From Pseudogymnoascus verrucosus (taxonomy: Eukaryota), in NCBI GenBank assembly GCA_001662655.1, contig KV460217.1: DNA of 64,000 nucleotides. One strand, 5' to 3'. Below the pieces are notes generated by a model, which worked only from the letters and a program-made list of their open reading frames with translations, was not told where the DNA came from and ran no database searches. Of this stretch, positions 4,255-64,000 are shown in pieces. Every line of letters begins with the position of its first letter. Within the stretch, counting starts at the first letter, position 1. A program made the position numbers and the translations under genes.

Positions 4255-4656
4255 TATCACGGAATTAGCAGTGCAAGCCGGTTATGAATGGGAAAATATG
4301 ATTTGTTTTACTTGGGACCTATAATACCATATTCAAGCAATTGTGTGCTTAATTTATATAATGATATCTAAAGTCGTAAAGTTTTCATACTTAAATTAAC
4401 TTTGCTAAAGTTTGCAAGAGTCTAATTTATTTAATATATAAAAATATAAAAACCAGAACCATCTGCAACACAGGTATAATTTAAAGTACAGTAGCATCCA
4501 TAGTTTTAGTTTCCTTTCTTATGAACTACCAACAAATTGTTCTTTGGAATGCACTGCCCTATCTGCGACAAACGTCGATTAAAAGCCGTTTGCGCAACTT
4601 TAAGGACGCCCCTTTTATTCCTTCATGGTTTGAGGAAATCAAACTTCAGAACTGCA

Positions 4657-25769: not shown

Positions 25770-26031
25770 CGTGATGAAGGAAGGGAGAAATGAACGAGGA
25801 AAGTAACAGATCCAAAGGAGTCTGTGTCAGTCGTATAGGCAGGATTATTAAAATGTGAGTATGAAAAGTTAATCTTGCAGTTGGCAATTTGGGCACCAAT
25901 GTTTTCGCATGAAAAAAAACCTCACAACAGCTTGTCTGTTTCTATCACCTCTGTTCACTCTCTCTCCATTGCCAGCCGCGGTCATCGGGAAGGGTCATAT
26001 TCTGTTCCGGACTGGGGTGTTCCGAATATAC

Positions 26032-27920: not shown

Positions 27921-28044
27921 CAGTTGACATTAGATATGGGATTGGAAGGTGTATTCGGAGAGAAAAGATATGTACTAGAGAAGTGGATTATGATGCAGGC
28001 ATAAGGAAGTAGTCAGTTTTACATAATCAAAATATTTAGGTGTA

Positions 28045-39825: not shown

Positions 39826-39986
39826 GTTGGTCCGTTACAACATGTACTAGATATCCAGCCACTCTTTGAAAGTGACCGATATTCGCTCTGATCTCATTTC
39901 AAATCTCATAAATGATTTAATGGCCATTATCCTCAATCAGCTTACCAATTTGACTTGACCACTTCTTCAATTAATTCCTTCACAAA

Positions 39987-40544
39987 ATGGCGAGCTATGT
40001 CAAACCCAGCCCCCTCCCTCCCATCAACCGATACATTACAACCAATTCGGAAACAGGCACAGCACTCCTGGACGCTACCATCTCCAACACAGCCTCATGG
40101 ACCAGCGCCGGTGTAGCCAATTTCTTTCTTGGCTACTGCACGTCTGCCAACCCCGTCTCATTTAAAGCCGACGCCGACATTAAAGCCTATAGCAAGTATC
40201 TTGCTGAGCCTCCTGGCCTTGTCGTCCCCAATGGCACCGTCCTTCGCGTCGTCGACATGATGCCAGGTGAGCTATCGCCTATGCACCGAACCACCAGCTT
40301 GGACTACGGAGTCGTGCTAGAGGGCGAGGTCGAGTTGATTCTAGACGGAGGCGAGAAGAGAGTCATGAAGCGAGGGGATATTTGTGTGCAGAGAGGTACG
40401 AACCACGCCTGGAGGAATTGCAGCAATACGGAGTGGTCAAGGATGTTGTATGTTTTGACGGAGGCGTCACCGGTAGAATTAGAGGATGGAAACAAGTTGG
40501 AGGAAGATTTGGGGGGCATGGTAGGGGTGAGAAAGAGTGCCTAG
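39987..40544 (+). CDS. Cupin-2 domain protein
   Basis: SPMHRTTSLDYGVVLEGE, GDICVQRGTNHAWRN; intronless 185 aa. Confidence 0.9.
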   Translation: MASYVKPSPLPPINRYITTNSETGTALLDATISNTASWTSAGVANFFLGYCTSANPVSFKADADIKAYSKYLAEPPGLVVPNGTVLRVVDMMPGELSPMHRTTSLDYGVVLEGEVELILDGGEKRVMKRGDICVQRGTNHAWRNCSNTEWSRMLYVLTEASPVELEDGNKLEEDLGGMVGVRKSA

Positions 40545-43474: not shown

Positions 43475-45058
43475 CTAGTTTTTGGTGTAGCCTTTCCGCT
43501 CCACCACCGTCCCACAAAAGTTCTCCGGCTTCACAAACCACCTACTCACCGATCTCCACTCTTTATTTCTCACCTCATCATCGAGAACAAATTCAAACCT
43601 CCTCACTACCTCCGGAATAAGTTTGCTCACCTCTAGCAAGCTCAAATTCTTTCCAATACATGTCCGACTACCCATCCCAAACGCAAAGAAATAACGCTCA
43701 ACATTTGCCCCATTGTTATGCTCCTTAATCTCTAACCAGCGCTCTGGCCGCCAGGTGTCTGCATCAGCCCCGTACACGGAAGTGTTACGATGTGCCACCC
43801 AGGCGTTGATGCCGACCGTGCAGCCAGCGGGGAATTTCTGCCCGGCAAGCGTGGCACCACAGGGAGGTACCACACGTGAGAGAGGTAATCCGGTGGCTGA
43901 GTGTAGGCGGAGGCCTTCTTTGATAACAGCTTGGAGGAAGGGAAGTTGGGTAGCTTCTTTGAAAGTGATTGGGTCAGAGATAGCACCTGCGGCTATGCCA
44001 GCGTCGATTTCGTTTTGGAGGCGCTTGTACGTAGCAGGGTGCTTAAGGAGATGATAGAGGACCGAGGAGAGCGTGATGGCGGTCGTGTCGCTACCTGCCC
44101 CAATGTTGCTCTGGCAGATGGTAAATAAGTCACTTGGTGTCATTTTCTCTGGATCTTCAGCACGAAGAGCCAGAAACTTAGACACAAAATCGGGTGGGCC
44201 ATCACGGTCTTGACTTTTGGGGTCTTTGAGCAACGCCTCTCGTGACGCGATCTGAGATTTGGTATAACCTGCGACATATCCGTGGCCCCCAGTAGATGGA
44301 AGAAGAGGGAAGAGGATATTGTGGAGCTTTGGGAATATGCCAACGTATGTGCTGTATGAACCTCGCGAGTCAATGGCTCCGAAGACTCCTTCCTTATCAA
44401 CGCCCATGTCGAGGAATCCAAAGCGCTTTCCAAATGTTATCTCGCCAATAACATCGAACGCGTAGCATTGGAACCAAAGCCCAAAGTTCACTTTCCGGCC
44501 GGTCTGAGCTATCTCATGGAAGCGCAAAACGAACAGACAGCTACAGTTATCAACAAACGGCTCGTAGCCCACAAGAGAGCTCATTGAGTATGCGGAAGCA
44601 AACTTGCGGCGTTGTACGCCATGGCGATGAGGGTTAAGGTCGGCAAAGAGGGACGCCTTGTCGGGATCTGGCGGCATCCATGCCCAGTACCATGGAGCCT
44701 GGTTAGTTCGTTAGATTAGTAAACTAAAGGCTGGAGATGGCCATCGAACCTTGACAAACGCATTTCCATGCCCGTAGATTATTTTCGCGGCTTCAACGTC
44801 GTCGATGGAATACTCATTCGGCGCAATCCGCACAACTGGCCCATACTTCTTATGGAGGTCGACATTCGTCCTCTCAAAATCGCCTTGGTATATTTTATAG
44901 AGATACCACAGACGTGTGAATCGTGCAAGAGGCGGTCCTGGAACGCTGCGTAGCGGATCAATGAGCCACGAGACCAAGCTAAAAACAACACAGAGAGCAG
45001 CTCCAAGAGGCAAAATACTGCCTAAAGACAGTGATAGTAATTCCTTCAACATTGACAT
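43475..45058 (-). CDS. Cytochrome P450 (pisatin-demethylase-like)
   Basis: N-terminal TM, PGP, YGPVVRIAPNE, AGSDTT, EGLR, PERW, FGMGSRTCIG; intron ~44700-44749. Confidence 0.94.
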
Positions 45059-45212
45059 TGCCACAAATGTTCTATTGCTCGACTTGAAGAATTACATAGG
45101 GAGTATGGCGTCTTATTATACGCTGTAATAGTGAAGCAAGCGTTGCATAGTTAACGGAAGGCAACTGATGTTCACCTGTGTGGGAATTGCGGGGTAATCC
45201 CCCCTCACTTAT

Positions 45213-45514: not shown

Positions 45515-47119
45515 CTATAACCGCGACGAGAAACCCACCTCAGTCGCTACCACTCCCTTCGCACCGGCTACCCTCGCTGCCGCAACACCTGCCCTCCGTC
45601 CAAACACAGCACCGCTCGTCAAACCACTGCCACCAGGATAATTGCCATAAAACAGACCTCCCAACATTTCACCTACGCAGAACAGGCCCTCCACCTCCCG
45701 GCCTGATTGCGAGATGACAGCAGTGCTAACTGGGTTTACAGACAGGCCCCCGAAGGTAAATGTGATACCACAGCATACCTTAACCGCCATAAATGGACCT
45801 TTGTCAACTGGGAGTGCCCAGTTCGACTTGGGTAGCACCAGCTTTACCGTAGAACTCTGCGTTGATAAGCCGTCTTTGACAGCGGGGTCCCAAATCAAGC
45901 TTGGCTTCTCCTTTTGTGATGCGTAGACGGCCGAGTTATATTCCTTAATAGTCGAGATAAAAGTCGCTGGCTCATTCAGCCCACGCTGCGCGCAATTCTC
46001 TGCCAGCTCTTCAAGCGTCGAACCCCAAATTTTCTCCACTACTGTATCACGGTATTCCTCGTCCCGAAGCCACGGAATCATGCGCTGATCCCATACCTGG
46101 AATGCCACTCCATCAGGTTGCCCATGGATCGCGCGCCCAAAGCGTGCATAGGTAAAATTCCGCATGTCAACTCCCTCGTCAACAAAGCGCTCGCCGCCGT
46201 TGTTCAACATTAGGCCTAGCGGATATCCGCTCTTAGTAAATTCGTTGGAGATGGCCCGGTCGCCGCTGTTCGCTGGTGCATTCGCGTCCCAGCATGTACT
46301 ATGGCACCCAGACCAGTTGCCAGCCTGCTTGGCATTCACATCCCGCATTGCAAATTCGAGAGCGTCACCAGTGTTATATGGGGTACCGCGAACGCGTGCC
46401 AGGTCCCACCCCGGACCGAGATATTGTGAGCGCATACGGGGGTTGGCTTCGAAACCGCCAGCGGCAAGGATCACTGCCTTCGTTTTAATTATTTTGTCGA
46501 TTCCTTGGACCTCAACAACGACGCCTGATACGGCACCCGTAGCTTGGTCCGTGATGATGCGTTTTGCGGCGGTTGAGTAATAGACCTCGATGCCGTGCCG
46601 GCGTGCGGCATTCTGGTGGTCTTGGATTAAGCCCTTCCCTCCCTCATCAGTCTTTAGGGACATGCCGCCCCAGAACTTGAAGCGGCCATTAACCTTGTAC
46701 GCCTGTCTGTTGAAAGAGAGTTGGAAGCGGATTCCCTGCTTCGCTAGCCACTTAACGGCCGCATTCGACTCCTCGATCAGGGCCTGGCTTAGTTCAGGAT
46801 CAGTTCTCCCCGAAGTCATCCGGTCAATATCCTTCCGGAATTCCGCCGGCGTGTAGGGTTCGAGGTCAATGAGCTTGGCCATTTCAGCCGTGACGTTGTT
46901 GACGATGGGAAGCAGATCTGCTGTGCCATTGTGCACGGTCCGAAAGGCGCCGGCAGTAAAGAAGCTGTTACCACCTGCCCATTCCTCAGGACACTTGTCG
47001 ATAATTACAACGCGCCCTGCACCAGCCTCTGCCGCCTGTATTGCTGCTGTGAAGCCCGCATTTCCACCACCAATAACGAGGACGTCGGCGGCGCTGGTGA
47101 CTGATGATAGAGAAGGCAT
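45515..47119 (-). CDS. FAD-dependent tricarballylate dehydrogenase TcuA/CobZ-like flavoprotein
   Basis: DVLVIGGGNAG, GGNSFFTAGAFR, AGGFEAN, GWDLARVRGTPYNTGD, GNWSGCHS, RFVDEG, GITFTFGGL, NYPGGSGLTSGAVFGR; intronless. Confidence 0.85.
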   Translation of the reverse strand: MPSLSSVTSAADVLVIGGGNAGFTAAIQAAEAGAGRVVIIDKCPEEWAGGNSFFTAGAFRTVHNGTADLLPIVNNVTAEMAKLIDLEPYTPAEFRKDIDRMTSGRTDPELSQALIEESNAAVKWLAKQGIRFQLSFNRQAYKVNGRFKFWGGMSLKTDEGGKGLIQDHQNAARRHGIEVYYSTAAKRIITDQATGAVSGVVVEVQGIDKIIKTKAVILAAGGFEANPRMRSQYLGPGWDLARVRGTPYNTGDALEFAMRDVNAKQAGNWSGCHSTCWDANAPANSGDRAISNEFTKSGYPLGLMLNNGGERFVDEGVDMRNFTYARFGRAIHGQPDGVAFQVWDQRMIPWLRDEEYRDTVVEKIWGSTLEELAENCAQRGLNEPATFISTIKEYNSAVYASQKEKPSLIWDPAVKDGLSTQSSTVKLVLPKSNWALPVDKGPFMAVKVCCGITFTFGGLSVNPVSTAVISQSGREVEGLFCVGEMLGGLFYGNYPGGSGLTSGAVFGRRAGVAAARVAGAKGVVATEVGFSSRL

Positions 47120-47460
47120 AGCACAGAGAGATGAAGTAATGATAGAAGATGAGAGTGAATGCTGCTTGAGAAGACAGTACCTACATGGCAGGCGACAGCA
47201 TCTAAATATTCGAGGGCATTGTGGGGATGTTCTGACTAAACGCAAGCTTTTGCTCGCGCCTTCTCTCAGCTGTAGATGAAAACTGTTTGGTGCCCTACCA
47301 CGTGAGAGGAGACGGAGGTTTTGAGGCCGAAGGATGACGCGGAACCCACTTGTATCGGGAAGCGGGTCTCTCCACACCCCAATGGCGCTGGGACCCCTGA
47401 ACGTACAGGGGATACCATGCCATCGGGTCGATCTAGGCGCAGGCCTCGGAGCTTGTCCGA

Positions 47461-47477
47461 CGGAGAGTTTCAGTCCG
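47461..47477 (+). promoter_or_regulatory. Cluster B motif CGG-N11-CCG (CGGAGAGTTTCAGTCCG)
   Basis: In the TcuA-like/aldolase divergent promoter; 16/17 identical to the site at 59274. Confidence 0.72.
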
Positions 47478-47679
47478 ACGACAAACTGACAGGATAACAA
47501 GGACGGCAGTGTTATCCGGATTTCTTGTACTTGTAATTGAGATGTATATCAATGGGGGATTCTCAAGGCTTGGAGCATGCTTCGCTAAGAAACTCAGATC
47601 AAGTCCATAAAGTACACCAAATATCCTGCTGCACACACACATATCACCTCAAGCCAACTTACTAAAACCACCACCCATT

Positions 47680-48671
47680 ATGGAGGCGTCAACCGTTACC
47701 TCGACCGTGACTAGTACCCACGAAGATATCAGTGGGAAGCTATTGCCTATTCCGGCCGATACGCCTAGCTCGCAAAATACAGTGGCCGACAACGGCAGCA
47801 GCTTCTTCGAGGAGGTGCATTTTTTAGGCGACAAGGCGGGCAAGGTCACCATCCGCTCTCCCCCGCGCTTCGATAACATCGAGGACCAACGTAAATATCA
47901 GAAGCAGCATCTCGCCGTCGCATTCCGGGTTTTTGCCCGCCAGGGCTTCGACGAAGGTGTTGCTGGCCACATCTGTAAGTCATGCGATTTCAACGTCACG
48001 TGGACTCATGAAAGCTTACAGACCCCCTAGCTCTCCGTGATCCCCTCAATCCCGAGTACTTTTGGATCAATCCGCTCAGCACGCACTTTTCGCAAATCCG
48101 CGTTAGTGATCTTGTTCTCGTCAATGAGCAGGGTGAAGTACAGCCTGAAGGCGCACAGGCGGCCATCAACGGCCCAGCCTTCGCGATCCACAGCGAGATT
48201 CACAAGGCGCGGCCAGACTTGAACGCCGCGTGCCACGCGCACTCGGTGTATGGGAAGGCATTCTCGTGCTTTGGTCGGCCTATTGAGATGATTTACCAGG
48301 ATGCGCTACGCTTCTACAACGACCTGGCCGTGTACCCGCGCTACGGCGGCACCGTCATCTCGACTGAAGAGGGCGCACGTATTGCGAAATCGCTGGGCAA
48401 CTGTCGCAGTATTATTCTCCAGAACCATGGCATGATTACATGCGGAGCGACGGTGGATGAGGCAGCTTTCTTGTTTATTGCTTTAGATCGCTGTTGCCAT
48501 GCGCAGTTGCTAGCGAATGCGGCAAGTGGACCTGGCTGGGAGAAGATTATTATTGGCAAGGAGGAGGCCGAGATGACGCATAAGAAGAGCGGGAATTCAA
48601 GTAAGATGTGGCTTGCATTTCAGCCGTATTATGATCAGGTGGTAAAGAATGAGCCGGATGTTTTAACATAA
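47680..48671 (+). CDS. Class II aldolase/adducin-family metalloenzyme
   Basis: GFDEGVAGHIS|LRDP, FWINP, AFAIHSEIH, AACHAHS, LQNHG; intron 47975-48030. Confidence 0.9.
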
Positions 48672-48729
48672 GGGGTATTTGAATAGGTTATTGTTTTATT
48701 TATTTAAAGGGGTATATACATATTTTAGA

Positions 48730-51358
48730 CAGTGTGCAGCGAATCGTGACTCGGCATGATTCGCCCCGAATCAGATTCGAATCATGATCTGATTCGGGCT
48801 ATTTCTCAATGATTCGAATCATGATTCGAATACTTGCCAAGATACATAATATGTCCAAGCGTCTAGCGGTGAAGGCTTGTCGCCGTCCTCAATATATAGC
48901 TTTTTAGATTAACATTTAATACAATTAATACAATCATTGTTATTATGAGTGATTCCGAGCTGTCTGACGTTCCTAAGGATCTTGATGATTATGTCGTCGA
49001 TAAAGATAACAGTAATGCGAGTGTATTCTCATCGTCTTCGCTGTCGTTACCACAAAGTAGTAATGATGGTATATTCTCATCGTCTTCGCTATCGTTACCA
49101 CAAAGCAGTACTACAATACTACAGCTACCAGCCACTCATTCTACTCTTTTTACGAAGAATCTATATTCTCGTACTATCTTAAGAGGCTCTCCTAATAAGA
49201 TGCAGTATACCTGTACACAAGAGAACTGTTCATATATGCCTAAAGCTAAACCGGTATCACAAAATACGATAAGCAATTTATGGAGACATATTGAGCTAAA
49301 GCACCTAGCTATCTTCGAAGCTTCTTCAAAATCTACTCGAAAACTGAAGGATAAAGACAATATCCGCCCTTAGAATCGTGCGTCTATGTCTAGATTCTTC
49401 AGGCCAAATCCCCAGAGTACAACGACTCTAGTTTCAAGCACTAAATTCCGAGAATTGCTGCTTGCGTTCATCGTTACGAATAATCTACCTATAAGATTAG
49501 TAGATAAATTCTCATTCCGGCAGCTCGTACATCATCTTAATCCTTCAGTCCTAAGTATCTCTTCAACGTCTTTGAAAAGGGATCTACATAGGCAGTTTTG
49601 CCATCATCGAGGGCAGCTACAACTACAACTACAGAAGCATATTATAGCAGGTGGACGATTATCACTTACAACTGATGCTTAGACTGCTACGAATAGAACG
49701 GATCATGCTGCTATTACTGTACACTAGATATCAAAAGATTAGGTCCAACACTTAAGAATCCTTAATGTGATAAATCTACTTGAGCCTATTCATTCTAGCG
49801 AATACCTAGCTCAGCAATTACTCTCAGTTACAGATGATTTCAAAATTACACATAGAGTCTTTACAATTACAAGAGACAATGCATTAAATAATACAGTAAT
49901 GCTCAACTAATACGAATTAAGAGCAGCAGATGTTCCGACGACGACGAATCAGCCATGGAGCTTTATAGTAAAAGATGGCGATGTACGATGTATAGCACAT
50001 ATTATAAATCTAGCTGTTTAAGCAGCTCTTACAACGATGAAAGCTATACTATCAGAAGAGCTTGAGAGTTATCGAGTTCAAGAGGGTTTAGCTTATGCTC
50101 GGATCAATGCTATCTATTCTAAAAAAGAAGAAGTTGTTAGCGCTTTAACAAAGCTTCGTAAGCACATCTATGTGTTTAGAAATCGTTGAGGGTAGAAGGA
50201 CAGTCTTCGTTCTCACGCCATTGCCACTGGAATCAAGCCTGTTACTCTTACGATTAATATGCTAGTAAGATGGAACTCAACGTATCATATGCTTCAAAAT
50301 GCATTGTTAATAGAGGCACCAATTACAGCGCTTTGTGCGTTACAGACTCTTGATATAAGCATGCGGGATATCCAGATTACTTCGAAGGAATGGGAATTAC
50401 TTCATGCTCTTATAGATTTCTTCGAGATTTTCAAGCGTATCTCAGAAAAGGTGCAAGCAGATGGGTATCCAACACTTAACTACTGTGTTCCATATTATCT
50501 ACGACTAATGGATAAAATCAAGAAGATGAAGAAGACTATGAAGCACATATCTATCGACGAAGCTTGTACTGCTGCGTTTAACAAATTAGACGACTATTTC
50601 TCACTTGCAACAAGCCAACGGTCAAGCCATTCAACAGTTGCAACAATATGCGATCCTCGGTTTAATTTTAGTATATTTAACTTCTATTTACTAGAAAGCT
50701 TTTATAACATAAGCAAAGAGCGAGCAAGAGCACAGTTTGCAGCTTGTTATAACAAGTATAAAGCACAGGACAATGACATTCGAGCAGAGGAAATAGATGC
50801 TATGCATAACGAGGATGAGAATATACCTCGAGAAGTAGACTCTGAGGATGAGATGTTTAAGCATCGAAAGCCTATACTTCAAGAAGTCGAATGGAGACGG
50901 TAGCTTAATGAGCTAGGAGTTGATAAGCCTAATACTAATGTTCTTAAATATTAGCAAGCAAAGCAGTATTAGTATCTAATAATTGCACAAATAGCTCGAG
51001 ACTATTTGGCAATTCTAGCAACATCAGTAGCATCAGAACGAGTCTTTAGCTAAGGAGCTGACATTGTTACGAAGAAAAGGAATAGACTATTACCTTTAAC
51101 AATCAGATACTTACTATGTCTACGGGATTAGGGGGTAATTGTCGATGATGAGGATGTCGAAGATATAAGTCAAGATATGGGTTAGGCATAGTTAAATATT
51201 TTTCGTAGTTTTCAATATTCCATACACTCTATTTCAGCCTCAAAGATTCGAATCATGACTCGAATCAGATTCGAGTCATGATTCGGCGAATACCTCAAAA
51301 ATATGAATGATTCGGCGGATCGCCGAATAGTATTCGGGGGGTGATTCGCCGCACACTG
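48730..51358 (+). mobile_element. Complete hAT-superfamily DNA transposon, RIP-inactivated
   Basis: 8-bp TSD ATTTTAGA (48722-48729 / 51359-51366); TIR CAGTGTGC(A/G)GCGAATC 15/16; subterminal GATTCGAATCATGA repeats. Confidence 0.95.
48945..51185 (+). pseudogene. hAT transposase remnant (BED-like finger, DDE core, dimerisation domain)
   Basis: SLTTDA*, ITRDNA, VRCIAHIINLAV, VRWNSTY, ATICDPRF, ARDYLAI.ATSVASERVFS; many TAG/TAA stops at Trp/Gln positions. Confidence 0.9.
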
Positions 51359-51396
51359 ATTTTAGATTGGAATTCGAATAAAAAAATATAAAAAGT

Positions 51397-53662
51397 TTAA
51401 CCCGCAGCCTCATGCCTACCACTATTCTCAGCATCTAGTAGCACGCCATTAAAGCTCGGCATATACATATCCATCAGGCCATTAAAGTCGTCGTAGCCAT
51501 GCGGTAGGTACATGTTCCCTGTCTGCCCCATAACATTCTCTGCCGCATTAGACGACATGGGTGGAAACATTTGACATAAAGCTTCCAGCTCCTGGGAGTT
51601 GGGCGTCTGCACGTCCCACGTATTATCTGTAGGGGTTGTTAGCCTATATAATGACAGGAACGGGGTGTATTTAGGAACATATAGGTAAGTCTGGGGGAAT
51701 AGGGGTAAGTTAAAGAACATAACTCACCAAGGATATTCGGAATGCCATTCGCCGCCATCAGCCTCCTGATATTACCTACTGGGCTTAACACCCCCGAATT
51801 CGGCACCGTCAACTCATCTAAGCACCGCAAACTCGCAAACAGCGCACTCAAATTTTCCTCACTTCGCGTGCCTTCGGACGCAATCGTGTTCCGCGTGTGA
51901 ATTGTGCACGCCACATACACAGTGTAGCTTAGAAGGTATGGCGCACGCCGCATTGTGTATTTCTCCTGGTACGTCGAGGCGATGGAGGTTATGTTGCGCG
52001 CAGCTGTAGTGCAGCGTTTCCAGGACATGGCGGGAATCGACGACTGTCGTAGGTGGCCAAAGACGAAGGGCCGATGTAGAAGGATCACGAGTGAGTTGTA
52101 CGTAGTGAGTAGGATCATAATGTTTGGCGAGGGGGATGGAGAGGATGAGGGTGGGTCTTTAGCCCAGGGCTCGAAGACAAGGTGTGGGGGGAGGGAGGCG
52201 TACCAGCCGGAGAGGGCATCATCGACGCCTTGTAAGTGGGCGCGCGCGTTGTCGGCTGTGGCGCCGACGACATAGAATAGGTTGATAATTTTGGCCATAA
52301 TCTTAGAGAGCAGGCAAAGCTGTTGGAAGGTGGAGATGGAGTGAATCGGCGTCGGCACGACCGGCGGCATGGACGGGTTATTGGGGGATTTGGGGTCTAC
52401 ATAAGGCGTCCAGAGCTCGTTCTCCTCCATCGTATCTAATAAGTCGCGCGGAACGTGTGCGTCGCAGGGCTGAAAGGTGACAGGGCGACCGAGATATAGG
52501 CTCTGCAGCTTGTCACAGATGAAGGCGCCCCAAAAGACGCGTCGGCGGATTTCGACGTCTTCGGCGTTGCCACCCACAGCTTTGCAGTCGAGATGCAGAC
52601 CGAGATCGTACACCATTCGCAACGCGTAGCCCGTATACAGCCAACCCTTTGAGGCCATTCCCCGGGCATTAAATGTTGAGCCAAGGAGGAGAAGCCCTAC
52701 AATGGTTGGAATGCTTGAAGTGCCGAGGAGGGATTCGCTCGCGAGCAGGTTTTCGCACCGCGTAAAGAAGCGCCGGCCAATGGTCTCTGGGTCAGACACA
52801 ATATCTCGCACCTCTAGACGGTCCGAAAACTTGCTCACGCAGGCAAAGATGGCATTGAGGAGGAAGGGCGAGCAGTGGGGTCCGCCGGTGACCAGATCCC
52901 GCATGATGGCCGGTCGATATGTTAGGAGGAAGGTGTGATGTTGCCGATTCCAGTGCAGGTCGAGGAGATGCATCGCCAGTTCGGCTGGCTCATCACCAAT
53001 GGTGGTCATTTGCAAAAGGCGGTACTCCTTCTGCCGCTCTAGTAACGAGTTGGCAATGAGCTGATGGCGGAGCGGCTCATTGGTCTGACTGCTCCTCCGA
53101 TGCATAGGGTTGTCGGGGCTCAACCCGTGTAGCGCGGACGTGGGACCGTAAACCTTGACCTCTCCACGTTCGTCGACTGAAAGATAATTGGAGGGTTGGT
53201 AGCTGTCATCTTCTGATCCAACTGTCTCCCGATGCCCCTCATTGTCCTTCGAACCCTTGGAGTGGGGATTATGGGGCTGTTCGACATCTGCTTGACCACC
53301 TTGTGCCTCCGGGACGGCGCAACTAGATAGGTCTACCTTTCCATTGGTGACAATAATAGCTCCCAACCTCTTGTCACGTTCCTCTGGGGTTGCTAACTTA
53401 AGCTGGACCAAACACCTCTCTAGTGTCAATTTCTCCTCTAATAGAGCATTCATCAACATATTTGACGGCCTGTAATGATTAGCAAAGATCTGATAATCTC
53501 GGAGGCTCAAGTCCCTTGCCTTTTCTTAGGGGGCTCTATGGAATAGACACACTGGCGGTTATGTGCCATGCAGGACCCACACCGGGGCTTCTGGATATCG
53601 CACTTGGTCTTGCGGTGCCGACACGTGCGACACGCTCGGGCGAGGATCTTTGGCTCGGTCAT
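51397..53662 (-). CDS. Zn2Cys6 transcription factor with fungal-specific TF domain
   Basis: ACRTCRHRKTKCDIQKPRCGSCMAHNRQC; GWLYTGYALRMVYDLGLH, RRRVFWGAF..DKLQSLYLGRP; introns near 53472-53522 and 51568-51728. Confidence 0.92.
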
Positions 53663-53884
53663 GCTTGCCACTATGTTGATACAGGCTGCCGGAGAGACAG
53701 GATGCGTCGCAGAGTAACTGAATTGTCGGGCATAACTTGTGTGCTCCGTCCCTATAAGTCTGGATTGCGGGATCTCGGAGACACCTATACCTACGCGTTT
53801 AGGCATTCATGTCTTTGGGGTCGATACATGACCTGATTTCAACCCCACATTTTATTACCCCACCTTTTTACTACCCCGCATCAA

Positions 53885-53901
53885 CGGACTGAAAGGCCCC
53901 G
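53885..53901 (-). promoter_or_regulatory. Cluster B motif CGGGGCCTTTCAGTCCG
   Basis: In the TF/PIG3 divergent promoter; CGG-N8-AGTCCG. Confidence 0.68.
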
Positions 53902-54420
53902 ACACTCGTAAGCCCAAGCCGAACGATAACCTTACCTGAATGCCATAGGGCAAAACATCAGTCGCATTTTGGAGCCTATGTCTAGACGGGATGGTGTTAT
54001 TTTTGCATTTGCTATCGGGTTGTAGTGGTTCAGCCAGGACTGGTCCTAAAGCTTGGTATATCGGATAGCGGGGTAACTTACCAAGACCATGTACCTCGAT
54101 AAAGTTTGATACAGCAGCAATACGTCCGCTGCACCCCAATGGCTAGCTTTCGGGGCCGAAAAGCCGGAGATCAACGAAGCTTCTATCACACGGCTTGCAT
54201 ACTACTGGATGCACACTAGAGTCGGCCAGCATAAAGTAAGCAAATCCATCTATCTACCAAGGTATTACAACTACGCGTCCGCACCAAAACCCAACATTAT
54301 CTCCTGCGATAAACTACGTTGGTGAAGTTATTTTCTGGGTATTTTAATCAGCACCTCACAATCGGTATAGCACATTGCTTTCTACGCAACCGGTCGGCGC
54401 CATATCAAGACAACTCCAAG

Positions 54421-55605
54421 ATGAAAGCAGTTGGTATAAAAAATGGCCGCGGCAACGCCGATGCTTTCTTCATCGACGACAATGTCCCCGATCCAATTGT
54501 CTCTTCGGGTCGCATCTTAGTTGCCATCAAAGCCTTTGGCCTAAATCGTATGGACATAATGCAGCGCGAGGATAAGTACCCATATCCCCTCCTACCAGAG
54601 TCGGGAAAGATTTTGGGGGTAGAGTTCAGTGGGTTAGTTGAGGAGGTGGGACCGGACTGTAAGTGGCGTTTCGAAGGGAGCGGTTGATGGTGGGAAGATT
54701 CTAATGAGACAAAACAGGTACTTCGAATTTCAAGGTCGGGGACAAGGTGTTTGGGCTGGCTTATGGGGGAGCTGTGAGTGCTTGTGCTATACACTTCTAT
54801 GTTTCTCATACACGTCACTAACTATAATTCCCAAACAGTATGCACAGAAGATCTCTGTTTCTGAAAAGATGATCATGCACATCCCAGACACAATGAGCTT
54901 TGAGACAGCAGCAGGGATTCCAGAAGTCAGTTAAACCTAACCTGTCTTTTTTGACAACCAACATCCAGCTAACCCACCACCCAGACGTACTTCACTGCCA
55001 TCCAAGCCATTCATCTCGTCGGCGGGTTAGAGCCCGGCCAAACCGTCCTCATCCACGCTGGCGCCTCAGGGGTAGGTCAAGCAGCCATCCAGGTTGCCAA
55101 ACTGGGCGGCGCCTCTAAGGTTATTGTCACGGCCGGTACCGACGCAAAGTGCGACCTCTGCCGCTCCCTCGGGGCCGACGTGGCTGTCAATTACCGCACG
55201 GAAAAATTTGCCGACGTCGTGGAGCGCGAGACGGCCGGCGCGGGTATCAACCTCATTATCGACCTCGTCGGGCAGAACTACTGGCATGCCAATACAGCCT
55301 CCGCTGCCAAGGAGGGCAAAATCGTGCTGGTTGCTGCTATGAGCGGGAGCATCATCGAAGCTTTCGATCTACGCGCGCTATTGAACAAGAGGCTGTGGGT
55401 TCTGGCCACGACGCTGCGGACGAGGGACTCTACGTATCAGGGAAAGCTGCGGGATAAGTTTGTCGAGGTTGCTTTAGATAATCTAAGGTTGGGGCGTATG
55501 AGGATTACGGTTGATAAAGTGTTCCCCTGGAGCGAAATTGCAGAGGCGCACAAAAGGATGGAGGCAAATACCAATGCGGGGAAGTTGATTTGCGTTGTGG
55601 AGTAG
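54421..55605 (+). CDS. NAD(P)H quinone oxidoreductase, PIG3/zeta-crystallin (MDR) family
   Basis: AFGLNRMD, ILGVEFSG, GGAYA, AAGIPE, LIHAGASGVG, MEANTNAGKL; three introns. Confidence 0.9.
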
Positions 55606-55971
55606 TTGGCATGGTGAGATTTGCAGTTTTTCTAGAATATAAGACACCCTGGTTTTTGTACTGAACTGCAGAATGGAGTAAGATAAACTGTGATTTACGC
55701 GTCCTCCCAGATAGTTAGAGGGTAGCCAATTAGACACAGAATAATTATTGGAGATGGACAGAAAGTGTACATGTTCCGATTATTAAAGCTCTACATTCCA
55801 GAAATCTTCTACCGAAAGCTATTTGCTACATTCCTTACTAGTCATTAAATTTTATCATTTAAAAGCATTTGTGAAATTTACCGTAACCAAACACTTCAAG
55901 GGCGAATGGAAGCATAATAATTTATAATATAGTCTAAACCCACGTAAAAACATTACAACCTAATTATCTAC

Positions 55972-56946
55972 TTATCTAAAAAGCTTCTCCGAATTCGTCA
56001 CAAACAACTTCTGCCAGACCGCATCATCCGTAATCCATTCTCTGAGCACCTCAATATGCACATCATCGGGGACCTCCCTGAAGCCTTCGATATCATCTAA
56101 GCGCTGCTGGTCCGTCCTACCTTTCCTCGCAACTCCCAACTGCGTATGCGGCCAATCTGAGCCAAATACAATCTGGTCGGGTCCCGCCGCGATGACAGCC
56201 TTGACTATGGGCTCGATGGCCTTCATTCCCTCACGGCCGCTGCCGTGTCCGTTGTAAAGTCGTTCAAACCCAGACACCTTGACGGTAAGACGTCCCTCCT
56301 TCACCAACTCAAGGAAGGTCGCAAACTCGGGCGTTTTCTCCTCGCCTGGGAAGGTGCCGCCGAAGTGGTCCGCGATCATCTTGACTCGTGGGTCCATGGC
56401 ACGGATCTGTTCCGCCATTGATGCCCATGCTGCACATAATCAGCTCAGCTCTACAATATTGGCGGAGATAATCGTCGTGGAAAAATACTGACTGCGGACA
56501 TCACAGAATACACCAATGGCCCACCCAAGGCGCCCAAACCGCTCCGCCAACGCAGCAACTTTCTTCCCAATCTGCGAGCCGCCAGCCTGCTCGCCATGGC
56601 CCCAGGACATCTCATGGAGCCGGGCCCCTCGCACTCCGGCCGCGTGCAATGCGTCAAGCTCCGCGTCCGTGGTAGTGTTGACATCGATGGTGGCAAGGCC
56701 ACGGAGAGTTAGTCCAGCTGTCTGGGCCTTGCTCAAGGTGTCGATGAGCGCGGCGGGAGACGTGCCTTGCACAGAGGCATGCACGACAACAACGCAGGTG
56801 CAGCCGGTAAACTTGGAGGGGTACTCGGTGATTTGAGCGGCTTTGGGTGTGTAGGATCGCGAGGTTGGGTATGGGAAATTTACTGGGTCGAAAACGTGGG
56901 TATGTGTGTCCCAAGCGCCTGCTGGGACGAGAGGGCTGCGAGGCAT
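55972..56946 (-). CDS. Amidohydrolase-2 family protein (LigI / lactonase-like)
   Basis: AWDTHTHVFDP, RSYTP, GVRGARL, DHFGG, VKVSG, FGSDWPHT; one intron near 56435-56495. Confidence 0.85.
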
Positions 56947-57213
56947 AATGTTTATAAGACCTGCTTTTATATTCAGTGGCTTTAGATCAAAATAAAAACA
57001 ATTGGAGTCAAATAATGTGTAGAGGATGGCGGGACATTTTATATGCTTGGAACAAGGAGTGTGGACTTTTTAATAATTCCAAGGGGGTGGATAAAATGTA
57101 TAGGATATCCACGCTCGTGTCGCTGACCCTTGAGTGCGGGGTAGTTAGTTGGTGGGGTGTTTCTCAGTGTAGCGTACTCCTGCCGACAAAGATGGTTGTC
57201 GGCCTCTAGCGGT

Positions 57214-57230
57214 CGGCCTCTAGTAGTCCG
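57214..57230 (+). promoter_or_regulatory. Cluster B motif CGGCCTCTAGTAGTCCG
   Basis: Upstream of the amidohydrolase; CGG-N8-AGTCCG. Confidence 0.62.
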
Positions 57231-57684
57231 AGCACTATCAGCTTAGCCCTGCCACAGACAGACAGGATCTTTGGGGTTCCCATTTCCTACTCTCTCCAAT
57301 AATAGATGATTCAGCAAAATGCCAACTCCCAGTACCGTATCCAATATGAAGATGTTGGGCTGCATCCAATTGCTTGGTTGCTTGGAACATCTCCGAGTGA
57401 GTAAAATTTTAATCAAAATAGAGGTAAAGTTCGCGTGGAGCTAGAAATGGTTATAAGTAGTTTTACATAACAATTACACTTGCTATGTCAGTTGTTTCCA
57501 CATGAAAACATGTATGGCATGAGTGCAAATACCGTAGATTAGACTAGATCGGCGGAGCTTTCTTTTTCTGAAAACATTATAGCACGCTCGTGGCTATTAC
57601 AAAATACACGCTGTGGAGCAAGCAGTTTAAATATTGTTAATTTGATTTATTTCAAAAAATCTGAATTATAATCTCTAGTATTGC

Positions 57685-58788
57685 TCATTCAGACTTCAGT
57701 TTCTTCGCCTTCATACCCTGGGCCAAAAGCTCTGTAACATCGTTTACCGTCTTCCCTCTTACTCTTGCATCCGGTTGCTCCTTTCCAAGTTCCGAATCTT
57801 CCGCTACAGTACGGTATACTCCTGCAACTTCTTGAAACCTATAGTCATGTAAGCATCCTTCCCAATAACGAGACTCATACATCAGACTCACAGTCCCTTC
57901 TCAAATCCGCCATTCTCAGCCATCGTATCAGCAATCTCCATCATCTCATGCACCCATCGATACGCCTTCGGTGCCATCGTAACTAGCCCCTTCTCCGCCA
58001 ATGTGAGTGTTGAAGGATTATACTTCTGTAGATACTCTCTTAGCTCCTCCAAAACGCCTAGTTCCTGCGCCGTGGTAAACGACTGGATTGCCAGTGCTAC
58101 GAAGCCCTTCGTCGTGCATGCAAAGCACATTTTCAACCCCGTCGCTGACCCAATCTTCAAATCAAGATGCTGCACATTCAGTGCCGCAGACAATGCTAGG
58201 TCAGGGATTTTGTGCGGGCCCGACAAGATAAAAGATGGGCAATGCCAGTTCGGCTTGCCATCGGCACCTCTTTCTTTCGGATATGGTACTCCACCTATGA
58301 TGCCACCATCCACATGATGGACGTTTGGGTTCACGCTGAGCAACGAGTTGATCTCGATAGCTGAGTTGGGTGAAATGGCGTTCATGTCCACATAATATAA
58401 AGGAGATTTCCGTGAACCGGGTGCGGGAGAGAGGGCAGAGACGATTCGTTCTGCGGTCTCTTTGGCGTCACGAGGGGGGACGATGGAGATGATTGCCGAG
58501 CAGGAGGACACTAGGCTTTCAATGGATGGGGCGAGATTGACGCCAGCTTTACGCGCGCGTGCTTGAGTACTTTCACTATGGAGAGAACAATCAGTGCTGA
58601 ATTCTTTCAAGAAGTTACATGTTAAACTCGACAGAGGAGTAGTAAAAGGGACTTAAGCAGGTGCTTCGTTACCTTCGATCTGCTGCGTATGTGAATACCT
58701 GATAACCGTGGTCGATGAGTAGCGATGCTACCCCTAGGCCCATCTCACCAATACTGACGACACCAACACTTGTGAAAGTCTCTGTCAT
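57685..58788 (-). CDS. 6-phosphogluconate / beta-hydroxyacid dehydrogenase-like NAD(P)-binding protein (DUF1932 type)
   Basis: VGVVSIGEMGLG Rossmann motif, SIVPP, YVDMNAISP, DGGIIGG, ATGLKMCFA..TKG, KAYRWVHEMMEIA; two introns. Confidence 0.85.
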
Positions 58789-59231
58789 TTTTGAAATAAT
58801 AATTTTCCGTCTTTGGAGTAATATACTATATCTTTGAGATTTGCTAGGAACGGATGAGCACCTGCGACTTCGTCAAAAACCGAGTCCAAAATCGAGGACC
58901 TAAATATTATCACAAAAAATCAAGTGTTACTCACACTATTTAATTTACATCTGAAAAAAATATCCACAAAAAGAAACCTATTCTTATCACAGGTTTCTAA
59001 GATTGTTGGCGGGGTCGTTCAACGTCGAAGCATTCCAGGCTCCCAGCAGATACCACTAGTGGGAAGCCCCGTTTCTGTGGGCTCGGGTATCGGCACCCCG
59101 CGAACAATGCCCCGCGGACAATGCTCCATATCTGGACGTCAGACTTTAGTCCTGTTCGTCTGCTATGGGGTTTGGCGACGATCCTCCCCAGGTTTAAGCG
59201 ATCCTTGTCGAATCCTATAAAAGAGTAGACA

Positions 59232-59290
59232 CGGACAGTTACAGCCCGCCAATGGCAGCAAGAGATGGGAGGTCGGAGAGCTTCAGTCCG
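59232..59290. promoter_or_regulatory. Two CGG-N11-CCG sites in the dehydrogenase/carrier divergent promoter
   Basis: CGGACAGTTACAGCCCG (59232-59248) and CGGAGAGCTTCAGTCCG (59274-59290). Confidence 0.7.
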
Positions 59291-59745
59291 CCACAGTAGC
59301 ATGCTATCCGACGAGATTATTCGCACGGCATCTCCAATCCATCACAACCTGTTACGATAAGAAATCTCACATGACATAGTCTCAGAGAGTATCCGAAAGG
59401 CCCTTTGGCTCCATGTGGTCCTATGATCTTTAGTGGGTGTCTGGAGAGAGCTCCGCTCTCTCCTTCTGATGTCCCGACGCCGAACATGCAAGGCAGCGTT
59501 CTGTGGACAGCTCAGGTCCGATGCCACGTCTTGGGCCTAATGGAAGATGTATCTAGGTTTCAAGAGACAACGCCTCAGATTAGCATTAATTTTGTATTCT
59601 AGAATCGTCCTATTATCGCACTTTCCGTTCATACAACTCGCTCTGCATTGTTCGATATTGCCACTCCTTGACCACTTTATTACGAGAGAAACTTGTATAC
59701 ACAACACCACCATATCATATACTCGTGGACAACTGGAAACAAAAT

Positions 59746-60938
59746 ATGTCAGTGCAACCCACTGAAACATCTGTCTTGCCTGAGCAAGTAGACAAGAAAA
59801 AAGAGCGCAATAGTCCCCTTCGCTCTGTACTTGCTGGCTCAACAGCCGGTGCAGTTGAAATTGGTAAGTCGAAAATCATACAATGCAATTTGAGATTAAA
59901 ACTAATCATGTCGGCTCCCAGCTATCACCTACCCTGCTGAATGTATGTTTGCATCATGCTACATTTTATACCATAACTCCATATTTCACCTCCTACACCC
60001 GTCGACGGATATAAATATTTATTAGGGGATTTACTCACACAGATTTAGTTGCAAAAACTCGAGCACAACTCAATCAAAGATTAGTACAAGGTCAGAAGCT
60101 ACCTTGGCCAAAATTTGGTGGAGAATGGTATGCTGGGTGTACCACGCTGATCATTGGAAATTCGATCAAAGCTGGCGTTCGTGAGTGTTGCTCGGGTATT
60201 AGCCAAAGCTCAGTAGTTTCTGACATAATTTGTCGTAGGATTTGTGGTATTTGACCAGATTAAAGAGCTACTTCAAGATGCAAATGGCAATCTTTCAGGC
60301 CCCAGAACCGTTGTAGCGGGCTTGGGCGCCGGGGTCTTCGAATCAGTCCTAGCCGTGACTCCGTTCGAAAGCATCAAGACTACTCTGTACCATAGCATCT
60401 CTTCTGTTTGCCTCTACTACCGCTAACTTCTCACAGTATTGACGATCGAAAAGCAGCCAAACCCCGTCTTCGGGGGTTGTTCCACGCTGTTCCCATAATC
60501 GCCCGCGAGCGTGGCATTGCTGGATTTTATCAGGGTCTAGTCCCCACCACGGCGAGGCAATCCCTTAACAGTGCAACGCGGTTTGGCTCCTATGGAGCAT
60601 TTAAACAGATGGCACTGTCTTACAAAGAAAAAGGGGAGAAACTTGGAAGCGTTGTGACATTTGCGATCGGCGGCGCGGCGGGAGTCGTCACAGTATATGT
60701 TACGCAGCCGGTGGATACGATAAAGACGCGGATGCAGAGCATTGAGGCCAAAACACTCTATAAGAGTAGTCTGCACTGTACGAAAAAGTTAGTTCAAGAG
60801 GACGGAGTGTTTAAGCTGTGGAGTGGAGCGGTGCCGAGACTTGCGAGACTGATCTTTAGTGGTGGTATTGTATTTTCGATGTATGAAAAAAGTATGGCTA
60901 TGTTTGAAAAAGTGGATCCTGAAGGGGTATATATTTAA
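59746..60938 (+). CDS. Mitochondrial tricarboxylate (citrate) carrier, Ctp1-like
   Basis: AGSTAGAVEI.ITYPAE.AKTR, GNSIKAGVRF, VTPFESIKT, QPVDTIKTRMQ, WSGAVPRLARL; several introns. Confidence 0.9.
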
Positions 60939-61014
60939 AATGTCTTAATAAATATTCGTCGACTACTAAAAATAATATGAAAAACCATGTCCCAAGGAAG
61001 TTACGACCGGGGCC

Positions 61015-61186
61015 TGCTTGGAAACCGTTCTTTCCATCTATAGGGCTTCAAAGTATCGAGGAAGCTGCGACAGGTCGGTCTTGCTTGCAATCGCTCTTGC
61101 CATATATAGGGCTTGGAGGTTTTGAGGAAGCTGCGATCGAGAATTTGCTTGGTAGTCGTTCTTTCCATATCTACAAAGTGGAAGCT
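61015..61186. repeat. Degenerate ~65-bp tandem repeat (about 2.5 copies)
   Basis: Units start tgcttg at 61015, 61082 and 61146; shared tatagggctt...gaggaagctgcga in the first two. Confidence 0.6.
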
Positions 61187-61440
61187 CCAAAAACCGACTA
61201 TTGGTTGTGATGAAGACAGTGAGCATGCATGTTATCTAGACTAATTTTGGTCCTAATTATTAACAGAAAGAAAGAGACGCATTGCAGCCTTGTGAAACAA
61301 CTGGCTCATGCGGGAATGAGCGCAAAGAGAGTCTTCAGGATGGTTAAATTACAATCAAAATATTCAATCAAGTATAACTTACTCCAAAAAATATTCTTGA
61401 AATTATCCTGAAGGGTGGTGTCGTTGTAGTCTGAAAACGA

Positions 61441-61457
61441 CGGGCACTTATAGTCCG
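61441..61457 (+). promoter_or_regulatory. Cluster B motif CGGGCACTTATAGTCCG
   Basis: 370 bp upstream of the MFS ATG; CGG-N8-AGTCCG. Confidence 0.68.
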
Positions 61458-61810
61458 GCGTAGCTCGAGCTATAGGAAAAGCAACGACGCAAGCGCGGCC
61501 TACGGCCCCGTGTTTAGAACAGCACCCACGACCCAATCGGGCATAGGGACTCTTACAGCGGGGTAATCTCTCCAACCATGTGGGAACCATCATATTAGAC
61601 GCTGGAATCCAGTATATGGGGATGCGGGGAAAGACCAGGGTCGGCATGCCGAAAAGGACGAAATCTAGCTTCCCCGTGGGGTTGGGATATAAAAGAGGCC
61701 AGAACCTCAATTTTTCAGAACAGCCTTAGTACTATCGACAACCATTTTTTTCCACCACCATCACCATATTTCATGATCTAGTTAAAGATACCACCTATTC
61801 CTTGAGCAAG

Positions 61811-63480
61811 ATGGCCAACGTCAATCAGCTCACCGGCCCTGCTGAGCACAGCGTGAAGCGCGATGACACCTTCGTTGAGGACATAGACATCGACAAAAAT
61901 GATATCTCAGGCAGTGGATATGTTATGTCCACCTACCATTCATACACTCCAGAGTACAGTAGCGAAGTGGAAAAAAAACTCCTCCGCCGGATTGATCTTC
62001 GTATCATGCCACTCGTCGTTATCATCTATATTTTCAGCTACCTCGATCGGAATAGCGTGAGTGAAGCTACTTCTCCCTATTCCAACCTTAATGCTGATGA
62101 GATTATTAGATAACTCAAGCTCGTTTGTATGGTTTGCAAGAAGATACCAACGTTACCGGTGCAGTATACAACACTGCTATTGCCATCTTCTCTGCTGGAT
62201 ATGTCATTATGCAATTGCCCTCCACAGTCATAATGACCAAAGTGCGTCCTTCTATCTACCTGGTAAGCCATACATGCATGTCATTCTGAATTTTGGCTTT
62301 TTGCTCACTCAAGTAGCCATGTTGTATGATTGCATGGGCCATTGTCAGCGGCTCAACAGCTGCAGCATCAAGTCCTGCAGGCCTCCTTGTTGCCCGATTC
62401 ATGCTCGGGCTAATCGAAGCTCCCTTCTATCCTGGTGCAGTCTACTTCCTCTCCTGCTGGTATACAAAGAAGGAACTTGGTATACGGATGGCATTCCTCA
62501 TCTCGGGCCTCCTTCTCTCCAATGCCTTCGCTGGTCTTATCTCATCTGGCGTCCTCTCCGGTATGGCCGGCGTCGGAAATCTGGCTGCTTGGCGCTGGCT
62601 CTTTATTCTTGAAGGGCTAGCAACTATCGCAATCGCCCTAGTGGCTCTTGTCTTTCTCCCGGACTATCCTGCTACAACTAAATGGCTTAGCGAAGAAGAA
62701 ACCATCGTCGCCCAAGGCCGCTTAGCCAAGGACGCGGGTAGCGACGATGTCTTGGACGAGGAGAAAGTCCCTATGCTCCAGGGCATCAAATGGGCACTGC
62801 AAGATCCGCGTACCTGGATGTTTGCCTGCTTGCAGATGTGTGCTTCGGCTGCCATCTCATACTCTCACTTCTTCCCGACTCTAATCTCCCAACTAGGATT
62901 TACCAACAACACTACCACATTATTGCTGACCTCTCCCCCATATCTCTTCGCCTTCCTTTGGTCACTAGGCCTTGCCCTCAATGCAGACAAGATGCAAACT
63001 CGGTCGCCGCACGCGGCCATCTCAATGCTCGTCGGCATGGTTGGCACCATCCTATTGATTGCCGTACCCATCCACTATAAATACCCCCGTTACGCCTTCA
63101 CCTTCCTCGTGGCCTCGGGGTCCTTCGGTGTTTACTCCTCCACATATACCTGGCTCTCCTCTACGATCGTCCGTCCACCCGTCAAGCGCGCCGCCGCCAT
63201 CGGTATCGCCAACACTATTTCTAACACAGCAGCGCTGTTTGGCGGCTACTTCTGGCTTGACATTTACTCCCCAGCCTTCCGCGAGTCGTGGGGCTGCGAG
63301 TTGGCCTTCATGGTTTTGGGGCTGGCGTGTATCCTGACGCTGAGGCTGGTGCTGCAGAGGGCCAATAAGGCGTTCGATAAGTTGGCGGCCGAGATTGACC
63401 CCAATGATAGTGTTGCTATGGCGGCTCTGGATGATGATTCACGGCGTGCAGTACAAAATGGGTTTAGATATATTATTTGA
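61811..63480 (+). CDS. MFS transporter, anion:cation symporter (Dal5/Tna1/tartrate-like) family
   Basis: LLRRIDLRIMP, YLDRN, EAPFYPG...WYTKKE, AWRWLFILEG, LPDYP..WLSEEE, KRAAAIG; two introns. Confidence 0.92.
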
Positions 63481-64000
63481 GCGAGCTGTTATTTATATGC
63501 AATGGGGGAAAGTTAGTTTAGCTCTAATTGGATTAAATGTAGATTAGATTGCATGCCTTCAACCTCCTACCGGAGAATAGAAGAAATATTTCTGATCGTT
63601 GAATTGGCCCCTCACAGCACCGGTAAAACTTTATATGGGAGAATGTTCTATCTTGATGCAACAAGAGCCGTCTCCAAACCCTGACCGAGCCCTTCGACGT
63701 CTGATATAATATGGTTCCTATATTATAGCACGATGGTTAGTGATGGGGTCTGTGGAGAAGCTGGAAACTAAGTTTAGAAATGGCAATGCTCATTTCTGGA
63801 ATCATTGGCGTGCTTCGGCCTCTCCATCTAATGGTATAATGGAAACGTACCCACGAGATTTGGATCCCATTATAGTAATGCATTTCAATCTCGTATACTC
63901 CATCCGCGTTTATTTATTGTGGGATTCTCATTAGGACAGTAGTAGGACTTTGCGTAGCCCGAGACTCGTATACTAAAGGTCAGGCCGTCATAAATCCCAA

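Follow-up and report, generated by a model that had tools for sequence, protein, structure and literature searches.

A Gal4-spaced CGG element in every promoter of an eight-gene Pseudogymnoascus cluster, probably the binding site of the Zn2Cys6 regulator encoded within it

A 64,000-nucleotide stretch of contig KV460217.1 of the fungus Pseudogymnoascus verrucosus (assembly GCA_001662655.1; the whole stretch is referred to as the window) carries, from about 45.5 to 63.5 kb, a cluster of eight genes in intron-bearing fungal DNA. The genes encode a TcuA-like FAD-dependent dehydrogenase, an aldolase-family protein, a Zn2Cys6 regulator, an MDR oxidoreductase (the ADH gene), an amidohydrolase, a DUF1932 dehydrogenase-like protein, a mitochondrial carrier and an MFS transporter (Table 1). 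The gene map was built by hand from stop-to-stop open reading frames (ORFs), Pfam and NCBIfam matches, reading of splice sites, and N-termini kept in a relative, L001, described below. The eight genes have five 5' intergenic regions (47120-47679, 53663-54420, 56947-57700, 58789-59745 and 60939-61810; 3901 bp in total), three of which are divergent promoters. Here we report that each of these regions holds one exact copy of the element CGGN8AGTCCG, and we weigh the reading that the element is the upstream activating sequence of the regulator encoded in the cluster.

Table 1. Genes and candidate regulator sites of the cluster, and counterparts of the sites in the relative L001
Feature	Position	Strand	Remarks
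TcuA-like FAD-dependent dehydrogenase	45515-47119	-	NCBIfam equivalog TcuA
Class II aldolase/adducin-family protein	47680-48671	+	one intron near 47974-48031
Zn2Cys6 regulator	51397-53662	-	six-Cys zinc cluster, predicted coiled coil, Fungal_trans domain
PIG3-like MDR oxidoreductase (ADH gene)	54421-55605	+	similarity to PIG3 quinone oxidoreductases
Amidohydro_2 protein, LigI / sulfomuconolactone hydrolase-like	55972-56946	-	one intron
NAD_binding_2/DUF1932 dehydrogenase-like protein	58788 (ATG) to near 57888 (3' end approximate)	-	one intron after 58675
Mitochondrial carrier family protein	59746-60938	+	profile match
MFS anion transporter, like D-galactonate and 4-hydroxyphenylacetate permeases	61811-63480	+	profile match
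Site P1, CGGAGAGTTTCAGTCCG	47461..47477	+	divergent promoter; 342 bp from the ATG of the TcuA-like FAD gene, 203 bp from that of the class II aldolase-like gene
Site P2, CGGGGCCTTTCAGTCCG	53885..53901	-	divergent promoter; 223 bp from the ATG of the Zn2Cys6 regulator, 520 bp from that of the PIG3-type MDR oxidoreductase
Site P3, CGGCCTCTAGTAGTCCG	57214..57230	+	268 bp 5' of the ATG of the Amidohydro_2 gene
Site P4a, CGGAGAGCTTCAGTCCG	59274..59290	+	divergent promoter; DUF1932 dehydrogenase-like gene (486 bp), mitochondrial carrier gene (456 bp)
Site P4b, CGGACAGTTACAGCCCG	59232..59248	+	second site, one mismatch, 42 bp from P4a
Site P5, CGGGCACTTATAGTCCG	61441..61457	+	354 bp 5' of the ATG of the MFS transporter
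Loose-pattern match outside the cluster, CGGAACACCCCAGTCCG	26008..26024	-	200 bp 5' of an ORF (ATG 26224) with a weak aldehyde-dehydrogenase match
P1 orthologue	L001 19667	-	exact
P2 orthologue	L001 14798	+	exact
P3 orthologue	L001 11270	-	exact
P4a orthologue	L001 9305	-	exact; upstream flank GGGAnGT conserved
P4b counterpart	L001 9364		one-mismatch site, 59 bp from the L001 P4 site
P5 orthologue, CGGACACTACCATTCCG	L001 7298		differs at 5/17 positions (12/17 identical), 1/9 of those specified; CGG-N11-CCG kept

A preliminary description of this DNA had listed five 17-mers of this form, and all five are present at the positions and on the strands given in Table 1 (P1, P2, P3, P4a and P5). The variant that it had read on the minus strand at 59232 is present as well, and is better read on the plus strand (P4b). 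With one exact site in each 5' region (5/5), 203-520 bp from the flanking ATGs, and with three of the regions divergent, the five sites cover all eight genes, the regulator included, as had been claimed. Over the entire window CGGN8AGTCCG matches six times. The expectation from 100 dinucleotide-preserving shuffles of the window was 0.28 matches on average, the largest number in any shuffle was 2, and 0/100 shuffles reached 6. The sixth match, at 26008, had been absent from the earlier list. The looser pattern CGG-N11-CCG is found 23 times in the window vs 8.65 expected, and the half-site AGTCCG 20 times, five of them within the 3.9 kb of cluster promoters. Since the flanks of the five sites are mutually unrelated, an origin of the sites as copies of a dispersed repeat was rejected.

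The element was also recovered by an enumeration that took no motif as its starting point. We counted every gapped 9-mer with splits of 3+6, 4+5, 5+4 and 6+3 and gaps of 0-15, on both strands, over the five regions. Only CGGN8AGTCCG, in its two orientations, was shared by all five. When the regions were dinucleotide-shuffled, a word in five of five arose in 0/60 and 0/150 sets, and a word in four of five in 11/150 sets.

A distant relative was found by scanning metagenomes with the DUF1932 exon. The scan yielded three loci, L001-L003, which differ from one another at 1-7 of 20687 positions and are therefore counted as one relative, L001. It has the same eight genes with order and relative orientation kept, the locus as a whole being inverted. 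Protein identity to the window, by exon, is 93-94% for the aldolase, 82-85% for ADH, 82-89% for the DUF1932 protein, 71-86% for the amidohydrolase, 67-78% for the carrier and 59-83% for the MFS transporter. The regulator is 75% identical over its body and 81% over the DNA-binding exon, and the FAD protein 81% over its first 129 residues, where the L001 locus ends. Contigs of the related runs X7, X9, X19 and X24 were likewise compared with the window; over the cluster X9 differs by about 6% and X24 by 11-15%, and these runs were not used as motif evidence.

The promoters of L001 are effectively unalignable with those of the window. The five orthologous pairs show 42-45% identity over aligned columns in global MAFFT alignments, and their longest common exact words are 9-12 bases long vs means of 9.3-9.6 and maxima of 12-15 for shuffled partners. 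CGGN8AGTCCG matches four times in L001 (0.07 expected; 0/100 shuffles reached 4), and all four exact sites lie in the orthologous promoter and in the same orientation as in the window, allowing for the inverted locus. Phylogenetic footprinting, which the preliminary description had suggested, thus finds the exact site in four of the five orthologous L001 promoters and a one-mismatch site in the fifth. The five orthologous site pairs are identical at 44/45 specified positions and at 66/85 positions over the 17-mers. When the gapped words were enumerated in the L001 promoters alone, 28 words occurred in at least four of the five, and by inspection all are registers of the CGGN8AGTCCG site and its flanks. 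Taking both species together, the exact motif is present in 9/10 promoters, and the consensus of the nine exact sites is tCGG(a/g/c)(g/c)a(c/g)Tt.(c/t)AGTCCGa; 8/9 have T at position 8. The claim that these genes form one regulon is strongly supported in silico: the element is the only word common to the five promoters and is kept in orthologous promoters that cannot otherwise be aligned.

We built a weight matrix from the nine exact sites of the window and L001 and used it to rank sites within and around the cluster. The five window sites come out on top at 21.1-27.8 bits, followed by P4b at 19.3 and then by an intragenic match at 13.8. A variant at 47313 scores 9.6, which is background level. 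The match at 26008 also scores 9.6, sixteenth in the window and among the background. As a ninth target it was rejected as probably due to chance, with its central T missing and about 0.28 chance matches to be counted on per window. This match adjoins a Tc5/pogo-type transposon (28005-29783).

The part of the window upstream of the cluster contains aromatic-catabolism-type genes at 4968-6649, 20674-22656, 30332-31250, 38149-39235, 39975-40544 and 43475-45091, encoding a phenol hydroxylase, an FAD monooxygenase fused to an acetoacetate-decarboxylase-like domain, a LigB-type extradiol dioxygenase, a fumarylacetoacetase, a cupin and a P450; a C2H2/Zn-cluster factor is encoded at 32278-34035. No good site was found in the promoters of these aromatic-catabolism-type genes. 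The preliminary description had set the regulon apart from a separate cluster A, and within the window this distinction holds, the lone outside match (26008) having a background matrix score. In the L001 flank of about 5 kb there are no exact or one-mismatch sites. At L001 4599-4615, shortly past the MFS end of the cluster, stands tCGGAGA-N5-TCTCCGa (matrix score 18.8), which has the same spacing and is fully symmetric. It precedes a second Amidohydro_2 gene (3312-4406, minus strand), which is next to an RPE65-family oxygenase gene (1471-3135). This second Amidohydro_2 gene may be an extra member of the regulon in L001; the window does not reach as far as the corresponding position.

The regulator has a zinc cluster of the form CX2CX6CX6CX2CX6C (cysteines 11, 14, 21, 28, 31 and 38; Pfam Zn_clus, expectation value (E) 5.3e-9). 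Its six cysteines are conserved in L001 and align without gaps to Gal4 and Lac9. Compared with solved structures, the zinc-cluster exon is closest to Gal4 (1aw6, E 7.7e-7; 1d66, E 1.9e-6) and Lac9 (1cld, E 1.8e-6), followed at a distance by Hap1/CYP1 (E 0.018-0.071), Ppr1 (E 0.026) and Put3 (E 0.16-0.29). Gal4 binds CGG-N11-CCG (PMC10250231). Behind the zinc cluster, a linker of 9 residues runs from the last cysteine to an RPS motif and is followed by the predicted coiled coil and then by the Fungal_trans domain. Of 120 orthologues listed, 26 have an annotated zinc cluster followed by RP[ST]; the linker is 9 residues long in 24 of them, and the other two have 16 extra residues, which seem to be a first intron retained in the gene model. 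In the window gene the first intron (53519-53470, minus strand) was read by eye as a GC-AG intron of 50 nucleotides with donor GCAAGG and branch CTAAT, and the splice is confirmed by the junction ...EPPKK|RPS..., which matches ...PPK(K/R)RPS... of the orthologues.

Dimerisation of the regulator is predicted. For residues 49-108 a homodimer model scored 0.49 (median of three runs) vs 0.01 for the best of three controls, with at least 92% contact agreement between runs and a predicted local distance difference test (pLDDT) value of at least 70 for the partner. The contacts are in register (residues 9:9, 13:13, 16:16, 20:20 and 23:23 of the segment), as in a parallel coiled coil that starts just after the linker. 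In calibration on microbial proteins the mark was reached by 21/30 proteins solved as same-chain pairs and by 0/23 solved as single chains. Among eukaryotic proteins 17/29 reached it, and since only 1/7 of those with no older solved relative did so, the pass of the regulator may be due to its likeness to Gal4-family dimers already solved.

The regulator belongs to a family that is conserved over Pezizomycotina at 50-96% identity, including Leotiomycetes, Onygenales, Aspergillus and Fusarium; among 8000 candidates scored, 645 proteins fall at E <= 1e-20. The best orthologues are from Pseudogymnoascus species (96%, 91% and 87% identity), followed by Cadophora (78%), Leptodophora (74%), Zopfia (65%), Onygenales (57-60%), Aspergillus niger (57%) and Fusarium (53%). 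Most members carry automatic names, and the database labels include 'NirA' and 'xylanolytic activator'. In fused gene models the family adjoins a DUF1932 gene in a Mollisiaceae species (P0080) and a mitochondrial carrier in Fusarium (P0117 and P0119).

Judged from sequence, the 17-mer is probably the upstream activating sequence of the cluster's own regulator, whose own promoter is included among its targets. The element, tCGG-N4-T-N3-AGTCCGa, has CGG and CCG as inverted triplets with the 11-bp spacing of Gal4 sites, and one copy, presumably of high affinity, would act in each of the five promoter regions. The likeliest binder would be a homodimer of the Zn2Cys6 regulator, with one CGG triplet for each zinc cluster, and the 11-bp spacing could be set by the invariant 9-residue linker together with the parallel coiled coil behind it. 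With three of the promoters working in both directions, five sites would drive eight genes, and the inducer is probably a tricarballylate-like organic acid. The preliminary description had already assigned the site to this regulator, and we infer the same binder from the Gal4/Lac9-like zinc cluster, the invariant linker, the predicted parallel homodimer and synteny. The word 'operator' used there is a bacterial term, for which upstream activating sequence would be the fitting one. The autoregulation proposed along with it is plausible: a site stands in the promoter that the regulator shares with ADH, where it might give positive feedback, but it could serve the ADH gene alone.

Other explanations of the element were weighed against this one. 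That the matches are chance, a by-product of base composition or functionless remnants of dispersed repeats is hardly credible. The motif was picked after the sequence had been seen, and the further loose match at 26008 does look like chance; against this, none of the 210 shuffled sets gave a five-of-five word under unbiased enumeration, an independent relative has retained the site although its promoters otherwise match those of the window no better than chance, and the flanks of the sites are unrelated. A selected element might also be an operator, bound by a repressor or a dual-function factor, with the cluster held off until an inducer releases the factor. The sign of regulation cannot be read from sequence alone, but a position 200-620 bp upstream of the ATGs, centrally within bidirectional promoters, is what activating sites typically show, and Fungal_trans regulators inside catabolic clusters are mostly activators, so that we consider repression quite improbable.

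More weight, although still that of an unlikely alternative, falls on the view that the site is a real, selected cis-element bound by another Zn2Cys6 protein, for example the product of the C2H2/Zn-cluster gene in the upstream part of the window, or by a heterodimer with a partner that reads the AGTCCG half. CGG half-sites are common to many zinc-cluster factors (PMC10250231). AGTCCG is invariant in all nine exact sites and the other half is variable, a one-sided invariance that a symmetric homodimer leaves without explanation and that a heterodimer or a neighbouring co-factor could explain, so that a partner protein stays a live rival. What speaks against another binder is that both species have the in-cluster regulator in synteny with the sites, that its zinc cluster is most like those of two solved CGG-N11-CCG binders, that the homodimer model passes its controls, and that a symmetric site of the same spacing exists beside the cluster in L001 (CGGAGA-N5-TCTCCG).

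Several points count against assigning the element to the in-cluster regulator as a Gal4-like activator of a catabolic cluster. The half-sites are asymmetric: AGTCCG is the same in 9/9 sites, and the other half reads CGG followed by (A/G/C)(G/C)(A/C/T). In the MFS promoter of L001 the site CGGACACTACCATTCCG has one core mismatch, and conservation rests on one independent relative. The matrix was trained on the sites that it ranks, a circularity that leave-one-out scores of 14.1-28.4 soften and do not remove. Rarity outside the cluster was assessed on window positions 1-45514 and 63481-64000, with one weak match, and on the L001 flank of about 5 kb. Likeness to Gal4-family dimers already solved may underlie the dimer model. 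A single equivalog match carries the pathway assignment, and the cluster enzymes other than the TcuA-like dehydrogenase play no role in the known bacterial tricarballylate route.

The closest known counterpart of the proposed arrangement is Gal4 or Lac9 acting on the upstream activating sequence of the galactose genes (UAS-GAL) in budding yeasts. To our knowledge, GAL4 neither lies inside its cluster nor has a site in its own promoter, in contrast to the regulator gene described here, which is inside the cluster and has a site in its promoter. The six cysteines stand at the same positions as in Gal4, a coiled-coil dimer follows the linker (predicted here), and both are small pathway regulons with single sites in divergent promoters. 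The cluster regulator is, however, not an orthologue of these proteins, its middle domain and its targets differ, and its site has one extended invariant half (AGTCCG) and a preferred T at position 8. The inverted CGG triplets lie 11 bp apart in both systems (the Gal4 site being taken from PMC10250231).

Among Pezizomycotina the same triplets and spacing are used by the Zn2Cys6 activator CLR-2/ClrB, the motif having been measured for CLR-2 and derived from sequence here. In PMC4620465, the motif CGGN11CCG, obtained for Neurospora CLR-2 by chromatin immunoprecipitation sequencing (ChIP-seq), is reported in about 60% of 114 bound regions and is called nearly identical to that of Gal4p. CLR-2, which we compared by motif and not by protein sequence, governs a dispersed cellulase regulon of many genes, unlike the compact cluster here. 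In the AflR type of system a Zn2Cys6 gene lies inside the cluster, a palindromic site stands in each promoter including its own, and the distribution of sites marks the cluster borders ('islands of sites'). The present cluster shares the in-cluster Zn2Cys6 gene and the site in every promoter, and differs in the sequence and spacing of the site; it also has no backbone synthase and looks catabolic, not biosynthetic. Regulators that lie within their cluster and have a palindromic CGG site in each of its promoters are indeed textbook, so the value of our findings would lie in the specific assignment and not in a new mechanism. As far as we searched the literature, this specific site, the regulator family and the cluster are undescribed.

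The enzymes suggest what the cluster may do. The FAD protein matches NCBIfam NF006130 (tricarballylate dehydrogenase TcuA) with 487.4 bits, above the equivalog cut-off of 369, over profile positions 4-462 of 467. It scores 233 against the older TIGR02485 model, below the cut-off of 372.55, and the solved structures related to it are those of soluble fumarate and urocanate reductases. NovR/TqaM-like decarboxylases are closest to the aldolase-family protein among solved structures, and the amidohydrolase is closest to pyrone-dicarboxylate (LigI) and sulfomuconolactone hydrolases. The MDR oxidoreductase reaches 202 bits against the PIG3 subfamily, below the cut-off of 296.8, with a partial exon, the MFS permease, presumably of the plasma membrane, falls in the organic-anion MFS group, and for the DUF1932 protein a protein atlas search gave no more than the family name. 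From these similarities the cluster is probably catabolic, for a tricarballylate-like polycarboxylic acid or lactone.

The Salmonella tricarballylate system has a LysR regulator and TcuB. TcuA reportedly converts tricarballylate to cis-aconitate, a reaction attributed to work by Lewis and Escalante-Semerena in 2006. Salmonella tcuRABC resembles the cluster in having TcuA, matched here at equivalog level, and a co-regulated permease, and differs in that the regulator is of the Zn2Cys6 type here and that the carrier, the lactonase-like and aldolase-II-like proteins and the two reductases have no counterpart there. Full-text searching found no paper on fungal tricarballylate use or a fungal TcuA, and the fungal papers that contain 'TcuA' only cite the Salmonella paper.

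If the assignment is right, an anonymous gene neighbourhood becomes a defined eight-gene regulon with borders visible at the sequence level, the P450 gene on its left having no site. A widely conserved, unnamed Zn2Cys6 family would gain a concrete candidate binding site, and the cluster would point to a fungal route for tricarballylate-like acids. A further-reaching interpretation, possible though tentative and rather doubtful as a whole, is that the site is the cis-code by which an uncharacterised Zn2Cys6 family governs a fungal cluster for organic-acid catabolism, centred on a TcuA-type dehydrogenase and a mitochondrial carrier, with asymmetric recognition of a Gal4-spaced site. The invariant, one-sided AGTCCG extension would then be a six-base half-site, read by one protomer or by a partner protein in place of the canonical CGG triplet.

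Repeated DNA is found at two places in the cluster. The aldolase and regulator genes converge, and between their 3' ends, at about 48.8-51.3 kb (48800-51360), there is a hAT-like transposon remnant with a weak hAT RNase-H match at 50196-50903. In the related run X9 one contig joins 48712 to 51359 with no hAT-like element, and a several-fold higher read depth over the element in X9 and X24 marks it as multi-copy in the relatives. The intergenic region between the carrier and MFS genes contains a 66-bp tandem repeat of about 2.5 copies (61015-61173), 270 bp from site P5; its many joints and high depth in related runs mark it as a dispersed short repeat. Both MFS promoters also share the palindrome CCCCGTGGGG (window 61672-61681; L001 7116-7125), which in the window stands just upstream of the TATA-like ATATAAAAG and could be a second element, specific to the MFS gene.

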